Shown: positions 6,001 through 27,000 of the stretch, piece after piece
How the letters are laid out: each line of letters opens with the position of its first letter
How positions within the stretch are numbered: position 1 is the stretch's first letter
Source: Ophelia neglecta
Lineage: Eukaryota
Assembly: GCA_965285935.1 (NCBI GenBank)
Contig: OZ260665.1
Location: forward strand, 46,004,001-46,068,000
Reading direction: 5' to 3'
DNA length: 64,000 nucleotides
Position numbers: made by a program

Positions 6001-9000
6001 GGCTATTACGCCACCAGTCTCTTGCTCCTATTCTACTGCTAAAGAGATTTTATTTGAAAACCGGTGTAGTGCTTTCTTTTTAAAATTCCTAATTACAATA
6101 CATCCAGACCTACACTCAGTGTAGTTCTGATTGTGTGGGAGAGTGATAGACCAAAGTATGAATATCCCAACTTGAAACTAAAATCCAATTTTCATTTTTT
6201 ACTCAACTCCGGCATCAGTCAGCTTTTCATGCTCCACCACTCACAGTGGAAGAATATAGAACAGAATATAAATATATATATATCTAAATTTGTTCATATC
6301 AATCCAAATTATAACTGCAATTCGATTGGATTGTGGTTTCAAGATCAGATTTTTTTTGTCAGTTTTGTTGAATATTTTTACATACACAATTGTTTTCTGC
6401 TGGCTAACTGTAAGATGGGACATTCATTCATTTGGTATTGTGCACTAGGCTTGGTAAGAATTTTCCCCCAATTTAGCTTGAATATATGAGCATTATTAGA
6501 ATGCTATGGCATGTGCAAGTTCTGAACTGTCATTTCTATGGGACTATTTAAAATAATAATAGTTCACCAATGGGTTTACCTTTAGGCAACACTGCAAATA
6601 TGAAAAATTTATATTGGTTAATTACTTGATCATGTACAAAACATTTAACCAAAATAAGAATATCTTCAATAAAAGTAGACTGCAAAGCAATCGTAACCCC
6701 TCAGCCATAGTCCATATTGTTACAGTAACTCAGCAATACATTTGATATTCCCACTTCCCACCACTACATGTAAGCCACATAAAGGTTTTGGAAATGCAGT
6801 TTTCCAATAATCCTTAAGAAGAGTTTACTATGAAATTCAACATTATGACTGTATTTATCCTACATTTCTAGTAAGATTTTCTAGTAATTCTCAGAACATT
6901 TATAGTCTTATTGCAAAGTGCAGCAACAAGAAGGCATTTGATATACACAATTATGTCATTTTGTCATTGAAGATCAAGATCAGCTTTAAGATTGCTAGTA
7001 ACTTCTTTGCACATTTGATTTCTTATTAGTATTCAATCAGTTGGACTGAGGTGAAAGGTTACAGGGGAAAATAATAGCACAGCATAAAAGTGAATGGCAT
7101 GGTATGTGCATACGGTGTCATAAACATTTTGTGTGGCTGCAACTTGTAGTTGGTGAGTGACAAAGGGAACAAGATTATGCCCGCCCACAAGCCTGCTGCC
7201 GAGGCAATGACAATATCCCTTCAGTCTGGGGAAAAACACTTGACCCGAAGGCTTTCAGTTAGGACACGATAAAATCTCTTCTTTTTAGTGCAGATACCAA
7301 CCAAAGTGTGATTACAATAAACAAATCAATATCTTTACACATAGGTAGCACTGGATAGAGAGACTAAAGGCAAATCAGACCAATTAAACCAACAGGGCAT
7401 TTTCTTTGCCTGCTTTAAAGTGTTTAAATCCTTCTTTTACTGCTTAATAAAACTAATAGCTATTTTGTTATTATTTATACTCTGGCAAATGCATGGGTCA
7501 AATGAACAAAAGTAATTGGCATTCTTCAGGGATTAGGACATGATAATAAACATCCTCCTCATTTACTGTTCAGTTTATAGCGAAGGAAGCAGTATGAAAT
7601 TTACTTTGCACAATAACTCAATTATTCAAATGGCCCATGCTTGGCAGCTGATATCCGATATCATTAATAACAACCAGTTATTTGCATGGGATGTGTTATA
7701 ACATTAGTCCCAGCAAGAGAGGGGATATAAGATGATATGATAAAAACAAATCAAAGACATGCTTACCGACAGTATCACCACTAACCAAGCCAGTACCAGG
7801 TGGGCCAGGAGGACCCTGGGGACCAGTAAATCCTGTGGATCCAAAGGGGCCAGGTACGCCAGTAGCTCCACTTGGGCCACCTGGACCCGTCGATCCTGTT
7901 GCCCCTGTTCTTCCTGTTGGGCCAGATGCGCCTGTGGCTCCTGTTTCACCAGTAGGACCTGTGCTTCCAGTGGCTCCAGTTCTTCCTAGAGGACCAGTGG
8001 CTCCTGTAGCTCCTGTTCGTCCTGTGGGACCAGTGACTCCAGTTGATCCGGTCGCCCCTGTTCTTCCTGTAGGTCCTGATGCACCAGTCGATCCGGTGCG
8101 ACCTGCAGGTCCTGAAGAGCCAGTGGCACCTGTTCTGCCTGTAGGGCCTGATGCACCAGTTGCCCCTGTAGATCCTGTATTTCCAGTAGGCCCAGTTGCA
8201 CCAGTAGATCCTGTTGAACCAGTTCGGCCAGTGGGACCAGTGGAGCCTGTGAAACCTCTAACTCCTGTAAATCCTGTAGCACCACTTCTTCCAGTTTGTC
8301 CAGTAGCTCCCGTGCCTCCTGTAGATCCTGTTGGTCCTGAAGGACCAAAAGGACCTGTTGCACCTGTTCTTCCATCCAGCCCGGTGGCTCCAGTTGAACC
8401 TGTGCGGCCAGAAGGACCAGAACTTCCTGTTGCCCCAGTGGATCCAGTATCACCTCTTGGTCCAAAAGGACCAGTTGAACCAGTTGCACCCGTTCTTCCT
8501 AAAGGACCAGGGGGACCAGCAGGTCCAGTAAAACCAGTGCTTCCAGTGGAACCAGTGCGTCCATCTGGGCCTGATGGACCAAATGGTCCAGTTGCACCAG
8601 TGCTTCCCGAAAATCCCCTTGGGCCTGTGTTTCCAGTTGAACCAGTTCTGCCAGCTGCGCCTGAGGGACCAAATGGTCCAGTAGCACCAGTTGATCCTGT
8701 TGACCCGGTTCTGCCATCCCTTCCAGAGGCACCTGTTTGAAGACAAAAATAATGACAATAACATATAGAACACATTTTCTCCAAAACTTAGTTATGATTA
8801 TAATAGCTAGTATCCAAGAGAATCCTAACATGTTTTAATGTTAGATGAACTATATATACAGTATATGCTGGTTCCTGATCAGACATTTACAGGTTCTTGT
8901 TAGAAAAGATCGGTTAGTTGTCAAGGTTACCATGATAGTTTCACTTTTTGCCCATTTAACAAAAGAATAGGATATATTGTATTATAGGTTAAAAGTATGT

Positions 9001-24000: not shown

Positions 24001-27000
24001 GGGGTCCAGTGAAACCAGTAGAACCAGATCGACCTTTTTCGCCTGTAGAGCCTGTGGCACCTGACCCACCGATGGGGCCCGTGGCTCCACTAACACCTTG
24101 TGGTCCAGTATTTCCAGTTCCACCTGTAGGACCTTGTGGGCCAGTAGAACCAGTACCTCCTGTTGGACCTGTGGGTCCTGTGGTTCCTGTTGCTCCTGTT
24201 GGCCCTGTAGGTCCAGTGGCTCCAGAACCTCCAGTCTGGCCATTTTGTCCACCGGTGCCATCTCTGCCAGGAATTCCCTGTTGCCCAGTGGCACCAGTAC
24301 CTCCAAGGGGGCCAGTGGATCCAGTAAATCCCTGTGGGCCAGTGGACCCAGTTCCTCCTGTGATTCCGTCAGGACCTGTGGGACCGGTAGACCCAGTAAA
24401 ACCTAGGGGGCCAGTGGAACCAGTGGCTCCAGAATTTCCTTGGGGGCCTATGTTTCCAGTTGCTCCAGTACTACCTTCTGGACCTGTTGAACCAGTGAAT
24501 CCTTGGTTTCCAGTTGAACCAGTAATACCTTGAATACCAGTTGCTCCACTTGCCCCAGTTTGTCCGTCTGGACCTGTTGCCCCACTGCCGCCGGTTGGGC
24601 CAGCCAAGCCAGTTGACCCTGTAGCACCTGTGGGACCAGAGGGGCCGGTGGCACCAGTCCCTCCTGTGGGACCACTAAGACCTGTGGATCCAGTTGACCC
24701 TGATGCTCCTGGTTCACCAGAGGGCCCGGTTGAACCAGTAAATCCCAGTGGTCCAGTTGCACCTAAAATAAAGTAGATTTGCATGAATGCATTATTTGAC
24801 GAAAGGCAACTTTCATTATCATTAAGCTTAAAGTTTGTACTTCAAATGAGTGTCCTTTACATTATATTGTATTACATACCTGTAAAGCCTTGCGGACCAG
24901 TGAAGCCAGTTCCTCCCGTTGTACCATCTCGTCCAGAAAAACCAGTAGCTCCAATGGGACCAGTGAAACCTGTTCCTCCAAGTCGTCCAGTTGCTCCAGT
25001 CCTACCAATTGGTCCTGTTGCCCCAGTGAATCCATCTGCACCATCTGGTCCAGTTGCTCCTGTGCTACCATCACGACCTGTAAAACCGGTTCCACCTGTG
25101 TTTCCAATAGGACCAGTTGCACCGGTGTTACCATCTTTTCCAGGCAGTCCAGTGGATCCAGTTGGGCCTAGCGGGCCAGTCATTCCAGTGCCACCAGTTG
25201 GGCCCATTAGGCCTGTATTTCCTGTTGCTCCAGTTGGGCCTGTTGGCCCAGTTGCTCCAGTTCCACCAGTGGGGCCACTAAGGCCTGTAGAACCAGTAGC
25301 TCCAGTATCACCTGATGGGCCAGATTGTCCAGTGAAACCAGTTGCACCCAAAGGTCCTGAAGGTCCTGTTGCTCCCGTAGAGCCATCTTGACCAGTTGCA
25401 CCGGTGTTTCCAGGTAGGCCATCACGACCAGAAGAACCAGTGGCACCAGTAGATCCTACTTGACCAGTTGATCCTGTTGACCCTTGTGGCCCTGTTGATC
25501 CAGTTTGCCCAAAAGGACCGGTAGGTCCAGTTGATCCTGTAGATCCAATATCACCAGTGGCACCGGTAGGGCCGCCAGGACCAGTTGAGCCAGTTCCTCC
25601 AGTTGGTCCAAGGGGACCAGTAAAACCAGTTCCACCAGTAGGACCCATTTGCCCAGTTGATCCTGTAGCTCCTGTGGGGCCAGTTGGGCCAGTTGCCCCA
25701 GTTCCACCAGTGGGTCCTGAGGGGCCAAAGTCTCCAGTACTACCAGGTTGGCCAGTGGCCCCAGTAGAGCCAGGGACTCCATCCCTTCCAGAAGAGCCAG
25801 TTGCACCTGGTCTTCCAGTTTGTCCAGTAGCTCCAAGTGGACCAGTTGCTCCAGATGAGCCAGGTCTACCACTTTCACCAGTGGCACCCAATTGTCCTGT
25901 GGCACCAGTTGCTCCATCAGAACCAGGGGCTCCACTGAATCCAGTTGCTCCGAGCTGACCAGTAGCACCAGTTGCACCATCATTTCCAGGGGATCCAGTG
26001 AATCCAGTAGACCCTGGTAATCCTGCTGACCCAGTATCTCCACGAGACCCAGTTGCTCCAGTGCCACCAGTGGGGCCACCTGGCCCTGTTGCTCCAACTC
26101 CTCCTGTAGGACCCGTGGGACCAGTAGTTCCTGTAGCACCTGTTGGGCCAGTTGGACCAGTAGCCCCAGTTCCTCCAGTGGGTCCTGAATCTCCTGATGC
26201 TCCTGTTGCACCGTCTCTCCCTGGAGGGCCAGAGGCCCCTGTGCTCCCTGGAGTTCCAGGTAGTCCATCTCTACCACTTGAACCAGTTGCTCCAGCTGAG
26301 CCAGTGAAGCCTGTTGAGCCTGGCCTTCCATCAGCTCCTGATGAGCCAGTAGCTCCATCCTGTCCTGTTGCACCAGTTGTTCCAGGGAGACCTCCAGCAC
26401 CAGTGGCACCAGTGGCACCAAGCTGGCCTGTAGCACCAATCGCTCCTGTTGGACCACTTGGTCCTGTAGATCCAGTGCTTCCATCTGTACCAGTTTGTCC
26501 AGGTTGTCCTGAGAAGATATTAAAGTAGATACATTAGTTCAGATACCAGGGCAGCTATACTGTATGCCTTACAATCTATGTTTATTTGAAAAAAATTATA
26601 TAATATCAAGTATCTGTGGCCTGCTTAAAAACTAGTTGAACAAGTCTGATATAATGTTATGTGTGTTGTCATCATTGAATATTAAAATAGACCATTAATA
26701 CAGTCAAAATCTTCTTAACATGTTATTTATAACCAAATTTGATACAATCATCCCAGTAAATTTAGGAAAAAAAGAATGAATTGCAAACACCAAAAATTAG
26801 AATGCAAAAGGTCATTGGAATATTTTAAATCTGATTGATGTTATTTAATCAATACTTATAGCTAAGAAAAACAATACAATTATGAAGGTTTGCATGCAGA
26901 CATAAAATGTGTGTACATCCTTCACATTGTTTTCAATTTAAAAAAACATTAGTTTTCAACCACAAACTTTACACAAAAGTTACATACCAGATGCACCAGT

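Follow-up and report, generated by a model that had tools for sequence, protein, structure and literature searches.

On its minus strand, the 64,000-nucleotide stretch of Ophelia neglecta DNA analysed here (the window) probably carries a single spliced gene for a giant non-fibrillar invertebrate collagen, which would run from position 28391, or further upstream, down to position 1703. This reading rests on the sequence of at least 25 exons with at least 5,520 codons, all of which we infer to belong to one transcript. The coding sequence (16.6 kb over 25 exons) contains no stop or frame break, and the 24 introns that separate these exons are all consecutively in phase 1, with canonical splice sites in 24/24. 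Counting Gly-X-Y runs of at least six triplets over the whole 64 kb, the minus strand has 1,741 triplets and the plus strand 7; the initial annotation had left the strand of the gene, which is minus, unstated.

The furthest-upstream collagen exon that we found, exon 4 (28311..28391, 81 nt, phase 1-1), encodes 9 Gly-X-Y triplets, and because it is so short its match to Pfam Collagen (E = 1.5e-4) falls below the cut-off. Exon 5 (26988..28097, 1110 nt) encodes 370 residues of collagen with four register breaks of 2-5 residues (Pfam Collagen, E = 3.5e-35); its final 21 triplets already belong to an unbroken run. The run continues, always on the minus strand, through exons 6 (24880..26508; 1629 nt, 181 triplets), 7 (23854..24762; 909 nt, 101 triplets), 8 (22946..23386; 441 nt, 49 triplets), 9 (22306..22737; 432 nt, 48 triplets), 10 (21429..21833; 405 nt, 45 triplets), 11 (20218..20802; 585 nt, 65 triplets), 12 (19433..19981; 549 nt, 61 triplets), 13 (19104..19319; 216 nt, 24 triplets), 14 (18367..18933; 567 nt, 63 triplets), 15 (17746..18231; 486 nt, 54 triplets), 16 (17289..17630; 342 nt, 38 triplets), 17 (16897..17085; 189 nt, 21 triplets, the smallest of exons 6-22), 18 (15768..16613; 846 nt, 94 triplets), 19 (14845..15636; 792 nt, 88 triplets), 20 (12569..14737; 2169 nt, 241 triplets, the largest; Pfam Collagen, E = 2e-97), 21 (11077..12318; 1242 nt, 138 triplets, with more Arg and Asp) and 22 (9269..10933; 1665 nt, 185 triplets). 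Exon 23 (7767..8732, 966 nt) adds 105 triplets and a 7-residue non-collagen end; its length is not a multiple of 9, and it reaches its phase-1 donor (G|GTAAGC) without a stop codon. Pfam Collagen matches were obtained in all ten rod exons scanned, exons 6, 7, 13, 17, 21 and 22 among them, and nine of the ten were above the cut-off.

Judged exon by exon through the split codons, and not from an assembled spliced protein, the unbroken run counts 1,622 Gly-X-Y triplets or 4,866 residues (21 triplets at the end of exon 5, 1,496 in exons 6-22, 105 in exon 23), in agreement with the figure of about 1,600 uninterrupted triplets proposed in the initial annotation; collagenous residues number 5,200 in total. 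Once one spurious intron read-through triplet had been trimmed from each of 15 blocks, the lengths previously given for exons 6-22 were reproduced in 17/17 cases, and each of these exons has Gly at every third residue and no stop. The range 7767..26508 that had been assigned to them takes in exon 23 as well: exon 6 starts with base 26508, and 7767 is where exon 23 ends. The 19 introns between exon 4 and exon 23 (107-626 nt, 21-35% G+C) are GT...AG in 19/19 and, as claimed, all interrupt a Gly codon, in each case between its first and second base; only the 135-nt intron after exon 14 has a length divisible by 3 and lacks an in-frame stop. The exons are 56% G+C. The lengths of exons 6-22 are indeed divisible by 9, because an unbroken Gly-X-Y repeat is interrupted by introns at one fixed place of the triplet; thus divisibility by 9 and uniform phase 1 are not independent facts.

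Among the 1,496 Y positions of exons 6-22, 1054 (70%) are Thr and 29 (2%) Pro, while the 1,496 X positions include 343 Pro (23%), 293 Ser and 248 Ala; Pro is almost confined to X. Per 1000 residues there are 358 Gly, 235 Thr, 91 Pro, 87 Ser, 1 Lys and 0 His. Synonymous positions are as diverse as they had appeared at first sight (Gly: GGA 647, GGT 646, GGC 278, GGG 140; Thr: ACT 720, ACA 345, ACC 68, ACG 26). With 0.286 nm for each residue, the length of the rod would come to about 1.4-1.5 micrometres (1.49 computed). The cuticle collagen molecule of Riftia has a length of 1.49 micrometres, equal to the value computed here. O-glycosylated Thr in Y, and not 4-hydroxyproline, would stabilize the helix, as reported for the Riftia protein. 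Glycosylation of Thr is not readable from DNA, and a rod devoid of it may be unable to fold; according to the available text of PMC11923368, a (Gly-Pro-Thr)10 peptide needs galactosylation to be helical.

Beyond an intron of 3.4 kb, five more minus-strand exons (A-E) continue the frame of the exon 23 donor in phase 1 until a stop codon is reached. Exons A (4236..4379, 144 nt) and C (2886..3053, 168 nt, with a linker), both phase 1-1, each encode a six-cysteine module without a match in the Pfam scan, classed as EGF-like from its cysteine spacing only; exon A has weak matches to Lingula EGF modules and to nothing else (best E = 0.018), and exon C matches P0242 (E = 4.5e-4 in a database of 8 proteins). 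Exon B (3662..3784, 123 nt, phase 1-1) is an EGF module with Pfam matches above the cut-off to FXa_inhibition (E = 1.2e-11) and cEGF (E = 7e-7). Exon D (2552..2647, 96 nt, phase 1-1) is a calcium-binding EGF that ends after its fourth cysteine, covering profile positions 1-29 of 43 in Pfam EGF_CA (E = 3.5e-8). The last coding exon, E (1703..2112, TAA at 1703-1705), comprises a 33-residue heptad stalk (2015..2113) with hydrophobic residues spaced 3-4 apart, a predicted transmembrane helix (1946..2014) of 23 hydrophobic residues followed by Arg-Arg-Trp-Arg, and a Ser/Thr-rich tail of about 80 residues; stalk and helix were both read from the sequence itself. Arg-Arg-Trp-Arg, a basic stop-transfer motif, suggests that the tail would be cytoplasmic. 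Protein searches with exon E gave no match beyond one weak alignment to P0242 (34% over 77 aa, E = 0.02 in a database of 8 proteins). Outside the rod, the 133 open frames of 60 aa or longer yielded neither COLFI nor C4 nor any other non-helical domain of collagen type, the tail end has no fibrillar C-propeptide, and no furin-type motif was seen by eye between the rod and the membrane helix.

We infer that the product is a type I membrane protein, an orientation that is assumed because the 5' end and signal peptide were looked for and not found, only a speculative candidate being recognized near 33.8 kb. The stalk is proposed to be a trimerizing coiled coil: in a three-copy structure model its contacts fall at heptad spacing, the score for stalk plus helix is 0.43 versus 0.01 for the best control, at least 96% of contacts agree between runs, and the partner has a pLDDT of 78 or more. 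The score mark was calibrated on two copies, not three, and was reached by 21/30 same-chain pair structures versus 0/23 single chains (in eukaryotes, 17/29 versus 0/30). Bundles of hydrophobic helices are perhaps over-called by structure models. In membrane collagens, a coiled coil adjoining the membrane helix nucleates the trimer. Here stalk and membrane helix would form a parallel trimer and nucleate the triple helix beside the membrane, and the rod would therefore zip from its C- to its N-terminus; anchored or shed later, it would build a matrix at the apical surface (a cuticle, or that of mantle/shell).

A search of a 1.84-billion-protein library with exon 22 returned 72,497 matches, of which the best 150 were examined. 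None of these 150 is an ortholog with a comparable rod, and 149 of them do not combine EGF motifs with a C-terminal hydrophobic helix. Those examined or named among the best 150 look prokaryotic or viral apart from P0007, the only eukaryote-like relative in that set, and the similarity of the rod therefore carries no phylogenetic signal. P0007 has Thr at 42% of the Y positions of its collagen rod, after which come EGF modules, the last of them shortened, then a hydrophobic helix and a tail; outside the collagen it is 92% identical, over 70% of that part, to P0151, the NCBI entry 'uncharacterized protein LOC106170605 [Lingula anatina]', and Lingula P0152-P0154 have the same domain order. A shortened last EGF before the stalk, as in exon D, is found in P0151, P0007 and P0152-P0154. 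Exon B is 59% identical over 39 aa to both P0151 and P0007, values barely higher than those for another record (58.5%) and an insect fibrillin (54%).

The uniform phase is best explained by proto-splice composition together with a phase match to the EGF exons. In a (Gly-X-Thr)n repeat, Thr ACA followed by Gly GGT creates a proto-splice site, ACAG|GT, that is always in phase 1, so that a rod of this composition would acquire phase-1 introns throughout. The exon-final Thr codon is ACA in 12/18 cases versus 28% inside exons (p = 7e-4), and exons 6-22 contain 112 in-phase CAGGT sites. Since phase 1-1 is also the class of EGF exons, rod and EGF exons combine without frame shifts. From the exon structure the initial annotation had deduced an origin independent of fibrillar collagens. 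The gene is not fibrillar, as indicated by the lack of COLFI, the phase-1 exons of 189-2169 nt and the repeat periods; an independent origin does not follow, because split Gly codons are known in collagen IV and the proto-splice cause is simpler. Set against fibrillar genes only, this one looks odder than it is. Among 113 tandem-repeat rows in the rod, a period of 54 occurs in 1, of 27 in 40 and of 36 in 38; triplet identity shows recurrence at a lag of 4 (z = 10.9). The motif that marks the junctions of other exons is present in 8 copies inside exon 20, and the top inter-exon DNA match of exon 8 is exon 9 (71.7% over 420 nt). The rod would have grown as short units were amplified, some of them in blocks of exon plus intron, long enough ago for the copies to have diverged.

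It had also been proposed that the symmetric phase-1 exons are cassettes, by which rod length would be tuned through alternative splicing or through exon gain and loss between species. The geometry is as described: exons 4 to 23 are all symmetric (1-1), any skip preserves both frame and Gly register, and cryptic donors at the 112 internal CAGGT sites, which share one phase, would stay in register. Many isoforms are annotated for a related gene of Lingula, and 4 of 748 self-matches extend through introns that are alike in size (exons 15-16 versus exons 18-19, for instance), indicating past duplication of exon-intron blocks. Nonetheless the splice sites of the rod introns are all ordinary (GT-AG with pyrimidine tracts), and the uniform phase is accounted for without any splicing function. 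Exons of fibrillar collagens are equally skip-compatible, yet they are constitutively spliced, which counts against length tuning; on balance we consider the proposal rather unlikely. Slightly less probable still is that two genes are present, a secreted collagen ending at or just after exon 23 by intron read-through and a separate EGF/transmembrane gene at 1.7-4.4 kb. The 3.4-kb gap is five times the next largest intron (the others being at most 626 nt), and read-through at the exon 23 donor would meet a stop after 23 more codons, with a possible hydrophobic end. That donor is a good one, however, and the five downstream exons keep phase 1 to the stop; a scan of the gap for a start codon, hydrophobic stretch and phase-1 donor gave 5 weak candidates, all with poor donors. 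Moreover, collagen, EGF and membrane helix occur within one chain in P0007, P0151 and P0152-P0154, all themselves gene predictions.

We regard as very improbable that the locus is an assembly artefact or a dead repeat array with no working gene. Long repetitive collagen genes are at risk of misassembly, a worry that the authors of the Alvinella genome voice over their own giant collagens (PMC12403961, available text). Here the frame is open throughout all 25 exons with every splice site canonical, the window is free of N, and exons 6-22 hide no interruption. Self-BLASTN of 7001-29000 gave 748 non-self matches with none reaching 90% identity (the best are three at 85-86% over 54-66 nt; most are at 60-75%), and tandem repeats form short arrays (no more than 7.1 copies where the period exceeds 9 nt, 61-95% matched); this lack of near-identical repeats makes an artefact unlikely. 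A bacterial or viral Thr-rich collagen-like gene, present as a contaminant or by recent transfer, is just as hard to credit. The best 150 of the 72,497 exon 22 matches do include the Microgenomates protein P0002 as well as P0010 and P0015, which carry phage tail-fibre chaperone domains, and identities run to 62%, but the similarity is compositional (38-65% identity to unrelated architectures), and the locus has EGF modules and 24 spliceosomal introns within AT-rich sequence.

The single membrane-anchored collagen gene that we favour can be compared with several known systems. Like fibrillar collagens it has a Gly-X-Y helix that is long and unbroken, and exons whose lengths are multiples of 9; fibrillar exons, as described in the available texts, are of 45/54/99/108 nt in phase 0, those of 54/45 nt starting with an intact Gly codon (PMC2852846), unlike the phase-1 exons of 189-2169 nt seen here without COLFI, and the present helix is 4.8 times their 1,014-residue domain (PMC4450265). 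Collagen IV genes are reported to have split Gly codons and very unequal exons of 40-4867 bp (PMC5395295), as here, but their helix has many interruptions, and the present one is unbroken and lacks a C4/NC1 domain. Collagens XIII/XXIII/XXV (MACITs), collagen XVII and the cuticle collagens of C. elegans are likewise made as membrane proteins; in the accounts available they belong to type II, anchored at the N-terminus, and MACIT helices are interrupted (PMC4678570, PMC10557271, PMC10538796), in contrast to the C-terminal anchor and unbroken helix of this gene. Thr triplets are described as typical of bacteria, archaea and viruses and not of eukaryotic collagens (PMC11923368); such bacterial and viral proteins share Gly-X-Thr repeats and top sequence scores (among the best 150 of 72,497 matches) with our gene, but have no introns, no EGF modules and other end domains. 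The giant collagens of alvinellids and the earthworm Eisenia are similar in having several thousand Gly-X-Y residues per chain (single chains of 7,719-8,859 aa), and differ in being, as described, Pro-rich in both X (33-40%) and Y (21-33%) (PMC12403961), compared with 23% Pro in X, 2% Pro in Y and 70% Thr in Y here.

The closest known kinds are the EGF-domain collagens of Lingula and the Thr-stabilized cuticle collagen of Riftia. Shell-associated collagens of Lingula anatina include a group that joins the triple helix to EGF, EGF_CA and FXa_inhibition domains without COLFI; the available text of these descriptions (PMC4595640, Luo et al. 2015; PMC13425148) mentions neither membrane anchor nor threonine richness nor intron phases. 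P0151-P0154 share with our gene the C-terminal shortened EGF, stalk, hydrophobic helix and short tail, and P0151 has 42% Thr in Y; their rods, by contrast, have 159-927 residues versus 5,200 here, and they carry IgGFc-binding domains (P0151) or thrombospondin repeats (P0152-P0154), neither of which was found in the window. In the Lingula gene with many annotated isoforms, the two isoforms compared have an identical 159-residue collagen part. Annelid cuticle collagens are described as having a very long helix and globular domains, that of Riftia being stabilized by glycosylated Thr (PMC11766948); the Riftia pachyptila protein (Mann et al. 1996), as described, resembles ours in its preference for Thr over 4-hydroxyproline in Y, its very long helix and its globular end. 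The gene is unusual, but it belongs to kinds of collagen of which brachiopods and annelid worms have already offered a glimpse.

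The collagen gene lies on the minus strand, where a scan of the whole window (which holds no N) for runs of at least six Gly-X-Y triplets recovered 1,741 triplets, all within positions 7789-28392; on the plus strand the same scan returned a single run of 7 triplets. Every block of the rod, as we call the Gly-X-Y part encoded by exons 4-23, has an AG acceptor on one side and a G/GT donor on the other, and in 15 blocks the open frame overran by one triplet into the intron and was trimmed. With this trimming, the lengths listed for exons 6-22 in the initial annotation (189-2169 nt) were reproduced exactly on the minus strand for all 17 exons, which together carry 1,496 triplets with Gly at each third residue and no stop codon. 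The interval covered by that annotation starts at position 26508, where exon 6 begins, and reaches position 7767, where exon 23 ends. Exon 4 (81 nt) has no register break, exon 5 (1110 nt) has four short ones, and exon 23 supplies 105 triplets followed by a non-collagen end of 7 residues. The unbroken run amounts to 21 + 1,496 + 105 = 1,622 triplets (4,866 residues), in agreement with the proposed figure of about 1,600; continuity was checked exon by exon and at the split codons, in place of a regular expression and not on the basis of a joined spliced protein. A reference started one base before an exon still gives the true exon peptide, because that base is the G of the acceptor AG. The 19 introns of exons 4-23 are 107-626 nt long, with 21-35% G+C and pyrimidine tracts, and all of them split a Gly codon in phase 1, as had been described for this region. 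The remark that exon lengths are multiples of 9 adds nothing beyond an unbroken helix and introns that all fall at one place in the triplet, and tuning of the rod length by splicing is, on exon geometry, possible. The intron after exon 14 (18232-18366, 135 nt) is the sole one that is a multiple of 3 without an in-frame stop; if retained, it would add 45 non-collagen residues in frame. The collagenous total is 5,200 residues, corresponding at 0.286 nm per residue to about 1.49 micrometres, and the cuticle collagen molecule of Riftia is likewise about 1.5 micrometres long.

The 748 non-self matches obtained by self-BLASTN of positions 7001-29000 include none at 90% identity or higher; most are at 60-75%, and the top three reach 85-86% over 54-66 nt. 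This result, together with a varied choice of codons, sustains the earlier view that synonymous positions are diverse and that an assembly artefact is unlikely. Of the 121 rows that Tandem Repeats Finder reports, 113 fall within the rod. Their periods are all multiples of 9, the commonest being 27 (40 rows) and 36 (38 rows), and no array with a period above 9 nt exceeds 7.1 copies. Since self-identity is low, repeat arrays are short and codons are varied, the rod is to be seen as an old, diverged amplification. Recurrence of identical triplets, evaluated against within-exon shuffles, is strongest at a lag of 4 (z = 10.9) and present at a lag of 8 (z = 4.3). Four self-matches traverse introns of like size (for example exons 15-16 against 18-19), and the sequence hints that part of the rod may have grown by blocks of exon plus intron. 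A primordial unit of 54 nt was rejected, as that period occurs in only 1 of the 113 repeat rows; exon lengths as multiples of a four-triplet unit were also rejected, the remainders being mixed. Small tandem repeats were also seen outside the rod, at 3092-3149 (a 24-nt unit in an intron), 5020-5067 ((TA)24), 38883-39121 (two arrays of 23-nt period) and 60701-60817 (units of 30-36 nt).

The composition of the rod is unlike that of vertebrate collagens. Among the 1,496 triplets of exons 6-22 the third residue (Y, the stabilising position) is Thr in 1054 cases (70%), followed by Gln (98), Ser (89), Asp (85) and Pro (29), while the second residue (X) is most often Pro (343), Ser (293), Ala (248), Arg (122) or Phe (108). 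Per 1000 residues the whole collagenous part has 358 Gly, 235 Thr, 91 Pro, 87 Ser, 61 Ala, 1 Lys and 0 His, with no Cys anywhere; the share of Arg and Asp increases toward the C-terminal exons 20-23. By analogy with the (Gly-Pro-Thr)10 peptide, which according to the available text of PMC11923368 forms a helix only if galactosylated, helix formation in the rod probably depends on glycosylation.

Exon 23 has no stop and ends with a good phase-1 donor. Downstream, also on the minus strand, are five exons that we designate A to E. Exon A (4379-4236) encodes an EGF-like module with six cysteines and without a Pfam match; exon B (3784-3662), an EGF module matching FXa_inhibition (E 1.2e-11) and cEGF (E 7e-7); exon C (3053-2886), a linker and a six-cysteine module without a Pfam match; and exon D (2647-2552), a calcium-binding EGF module truncated past the fourth cysteine (EGF_CA, E 3.5e-8, profile positions 1-29 of 43). 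Exon E (2112-1703) encodes a 33-residue heptad stalk, 23 hydrophobic residues, the motif Arg-Arg-Trp-Arg and a Ser/Thr-rich tail of about 80 residues, closed by TAA. These exons are phase 1 throughout and carry the frame from the donor of exon 23 to the TAA, giving a gene model of at least 5,520 codons and 24 introns, all of phase 1; we infer from this reading frame that the rod and the EGF/membrane exons would belong to one transcript. A search for a separate start in the 3.4-kb gap between exons 23 and A produced nothing convincing (five weak candidates, all with poor donors), and no furin-type release site was seen by eye between the rod and the membrane helix.

The uniform phase has a counterpart in the repeat itself. 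In a Gly-X-Thr repeat, the codon pair ACA (Thr) and GGT (Gly) gives ACAG/GT, with the splice point always after the first base of the Gly codon, and MAG/GT is the proto-splice consensus. ACA is the exon-final Thr codon in 12 of 18 cases, as against 28% among the 1,037 Thr codons at internal Y positions (p = 7e-4). Within exons 6-22, CAGGT occurs at 112 sites in this same phase and at one site in another, and no GGTRAG was found. Within 9269-26508, nine exons end with G-P-Q-G-F-T, the next exon then beginning G-x-T-G, and the same motif is present in 24 copies inside exons, eight of them in exon 20; because the junction motif recurs in this way, the large exons resemble runs of these units into which no intron falls. 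The Thr-Gly codon pairs would in this respect be a case of composition dictating intron position. Exons of EGF modules are usually of class 1-1 (Patthy's 1-1 modules), so that, with all 24 introns in phase 1, rod and EGF exons are mutually compatible, a structure that shows how exon shuffling can join a rod to EGF modules.

Outside the rod, the only Pfam matches above cut-off among 133 open frames of at least 60 aa were those to EGF, and Rfam gave no match in the whole window. Sub-threshold Pfam matches to DUF7502, SH2 and CX were set aside as weak; the SH2-like frame (6811-7026, plus strand, E 0.002, 18.5 bits against a cut-off of 21) sits inside the 3.4-kb intron next to a G+C-rich island (7055-7315), and may be due to chance or be a relic. 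For the 5' end, Met-plus-hydrophobic stretches and G+C islands were scanned in the window with nothing convincing. One Met-led hydrophobic frame on the minus strand (33719-33846) resembles a signal peptide, ends at a weak phase-1 G/GT and has TATAAA about 50 nt upstream of its ATG; that it is the missing first exon, which would imply a first intron of 5.3 kb, is a guess. Pfam, Rfam and open-frame scans recognised no other gene between 28.4 and 64 kb. Islands with G+C up to 0.52-0.63 in 54500-64000, with no Pfam or Rfam match and no convincing open frame, may belong to a neighbouring gene as its promoter, untranslated sequence or repeats. On the 3' side of the stop (1-1702, minus strand) AATAAA was not found, the only variant being ATTAAA at 187, about 1.5 kb downstream; the 3' untranslated region may be long or extend beyond the window.

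Exon 22 gave 72,497 matches at E <=0.001 among 1.84 billion representatives; the best 150 of these (709-4,756 aa, 38-65% identity) contain no comparable rod, most have large unrelated end domains, and those that are typed or named are prokaryotic or phage-like. The similarity lies in composition. EGF motifs and a C-terminal hydrophobic helix are combined in only one of these 150, the unnamed record P0007. In it, IgGFc-binding domains precede a 927-residue rod with Thr at 42% of Y positions, and the rod is followed by EGF modules, the last of which is shortened, then by a membrane helix and a tail. P0151, the NCBI entry "uncharacterized protein LOC106170605 [Lingula anatina]", shares 92% identity with P0007 over 70% of the non-collagen part of the latter. 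In the further Lingula proteins P0152-P0154 a short collagen leads, by way of EGF modules and a heptad-like stalk, to a membrane helix and a tail. An ending common to several annotated Lingula proteins and two unnamed records (P0151-P0154, P0157 and P0242) was noticed after the collagen: a shortened calcium-binding EGF, a heptad-like stalk, a membrane helix and a short tail. P0151 matches exon B at 59% identity, an unnamed record at 58.5% and an insect fibrillin at 54%. When the non-collagen parts of P0007 were compared to the window by tblastn, exons B and D alone matched, with no IgGFc-binding domain. The search with the P0151 rod covered proteins of 1,573-5,007 residues (the product of the window is longer), and its 120 best matches comprise collagen VII, echinoderm and cnidarian collagens and prokaryotic proteins, with no giant Thr-rich eukaryotic rod. 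For exon E, none of 1,785 candidates of 239-2000 residues scored, and the ESM Atlas returned unnamed clusters only (best score 0.79). The window does not resemble human sequence, and human reference proteins named in two of the match lists were left aside. Our literature search met no report of an annelid or brachiopod collagen gene with such an exon structure, a Thr-rich giant rod or a C-terminal membrane anchor.

Collagen requires a trimerising element, and the candidate for it here is the stalk continuous with the membrane helix. Modelled as three copies, residues 1-62 of exon E score 0.43, as against 0.01 for the best control; no less than 96% of the contacts are shared between runs, the pLDDT of the partner does not fall below 78, and the contacts follow a 3-4 spacing from residue 2 to 52. 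The score mark was calibrated with two copies, whereas the stalk-plus-helix model has three: it is reached by 21 of 30 proteins solved as same-chain pairs and by none of 23 single chains, and among eukaryotes by 17 of 29 pairs and none of 30 single chains, with only 1 of 7 reaching it among eukaryote pairs that have no older solved relative. The three-copy model supports binding but does not show it. With a C-terminal anchor the helix would fold in the C-to-N direction known from fibrillar collagens, opposite to that described for type II membrane collagens in the available portions of PMC4678570 and PMC10538796.

We consider it rather unlikely, though worth stating for its consequences, that the gene encodes the Thr-type surface (cuticle) collagen, 1.5 micrometres long, that biochemical work has described in tube worms. 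In that event annelids and brachiopods would share a single family of giant surface collagens, which would have originated as trimers anchored in the membrane at the C-terminus. Nucleation of the rod would take place on the epidermal cell or microvillus, through a coiled coil next to the membrane and the membrane helix; the EGF modules would be the "globule" at one end, and glycosylated Thr would replace hydroxyproline in the helix. The cell would then have a mechanism for assembling and orienting a 1.5-micrometre rod, the protein would be the first type I transmembrane collagen, and a gene made wholly of symmetric phase-1 exons could alter rod length in register. The rules for collagen derive largely from vertebrate chains, which have about 1,000 residues and owe their stability to hydroxyproline; an unbroken helix of 4,866 residues with 70% Thr in Y and almost no Lys is a natural test of triple-helix extension, folding and stabilisation by glycosylation only. 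The C-terminal anchor and coiled-coil stalk would be a new way of nucleating and orienting a collagen, and how annelid-type cuticle fibres come to be deposited, a long-standing question, would become directly testable. Genes of this sort are easily missed in annotation; compare the siboglinid gene sets, which contain no giant collagen according to the accessible text of the Alvinella genome paper (PMC12403961).

Among known collagens, the fibrillar type (clades A-C) has exons of 54/45 nt that start with an intact Gly codon (PMC2852846, in the part available), whereas here they measure 189-2169 nt, are of phase 1 and show no 54-nt unit, and neither COLFI, the C-terminal propeptide domain of the fibrillar type, nor the C4 (NC1) domain of collagen IV found a Pfam match in the 133 open frames or in 15 exon peptides. 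The claim that the gene is not fibrillar is upheld; the origin independent of fibrillar collagens that was proposed with it is plausible but not compelled, because collagen IV genes, as described in the accessible sections of PMC5395295, already have split Gly codons and very large exons. MACIT membrane collagens are type II proteins with an N-terminal cytosolic domain and membrane helix and an interrupted collagen helix; here the hydrophobic helix is C-terminal and followed by a basic motif, and 1,622 triplets are unbroken. The giant alvinellid and earthworm collagens also differ, Pro making up 33-40% of their X residues and 21-33% of their Y residues (PMC12403961, section 12 and Table 1). 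A further comparison is with the shell-associated collagens of Lingula, which Luo et al. in 2015 set up as a novel group that has EGF, EGF_CA and FXa_inhibition domains, lacks COLFI and arose by domain shuffling (PMC4595640), a group restated in a proteome paper of 2026 (PMC13425148); the sections available from these two papers mention no membrane anchor. Those proteins combine a helix with EGF modules without COLFI, and here both parts lie in predicted exons on one strand and are frame-compatible; in the Lingula proteins and this gene alike, a shortened EGF is followed by a stalk and then by a membrane helix, a likeness in layout. In Riftia cuticle collagen, the available parts of PMC11766948, PMC11923368 and PMC6953826 place glycosylated Thr, and not 4-hydroxyproline, in the stabilising positions, and the dominance of Thr over Pro in Y is found here as well (1054 and 29 of 1,496). 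The very long helix with a globular end of the Riftia type (accessible text of PMC11766948) also has its equivalent, in a rod of 1.49 micrometres with EGF modules at one end. The Lingula-type EGF collagens and the Riftia-type cuticle collagens may be one family.
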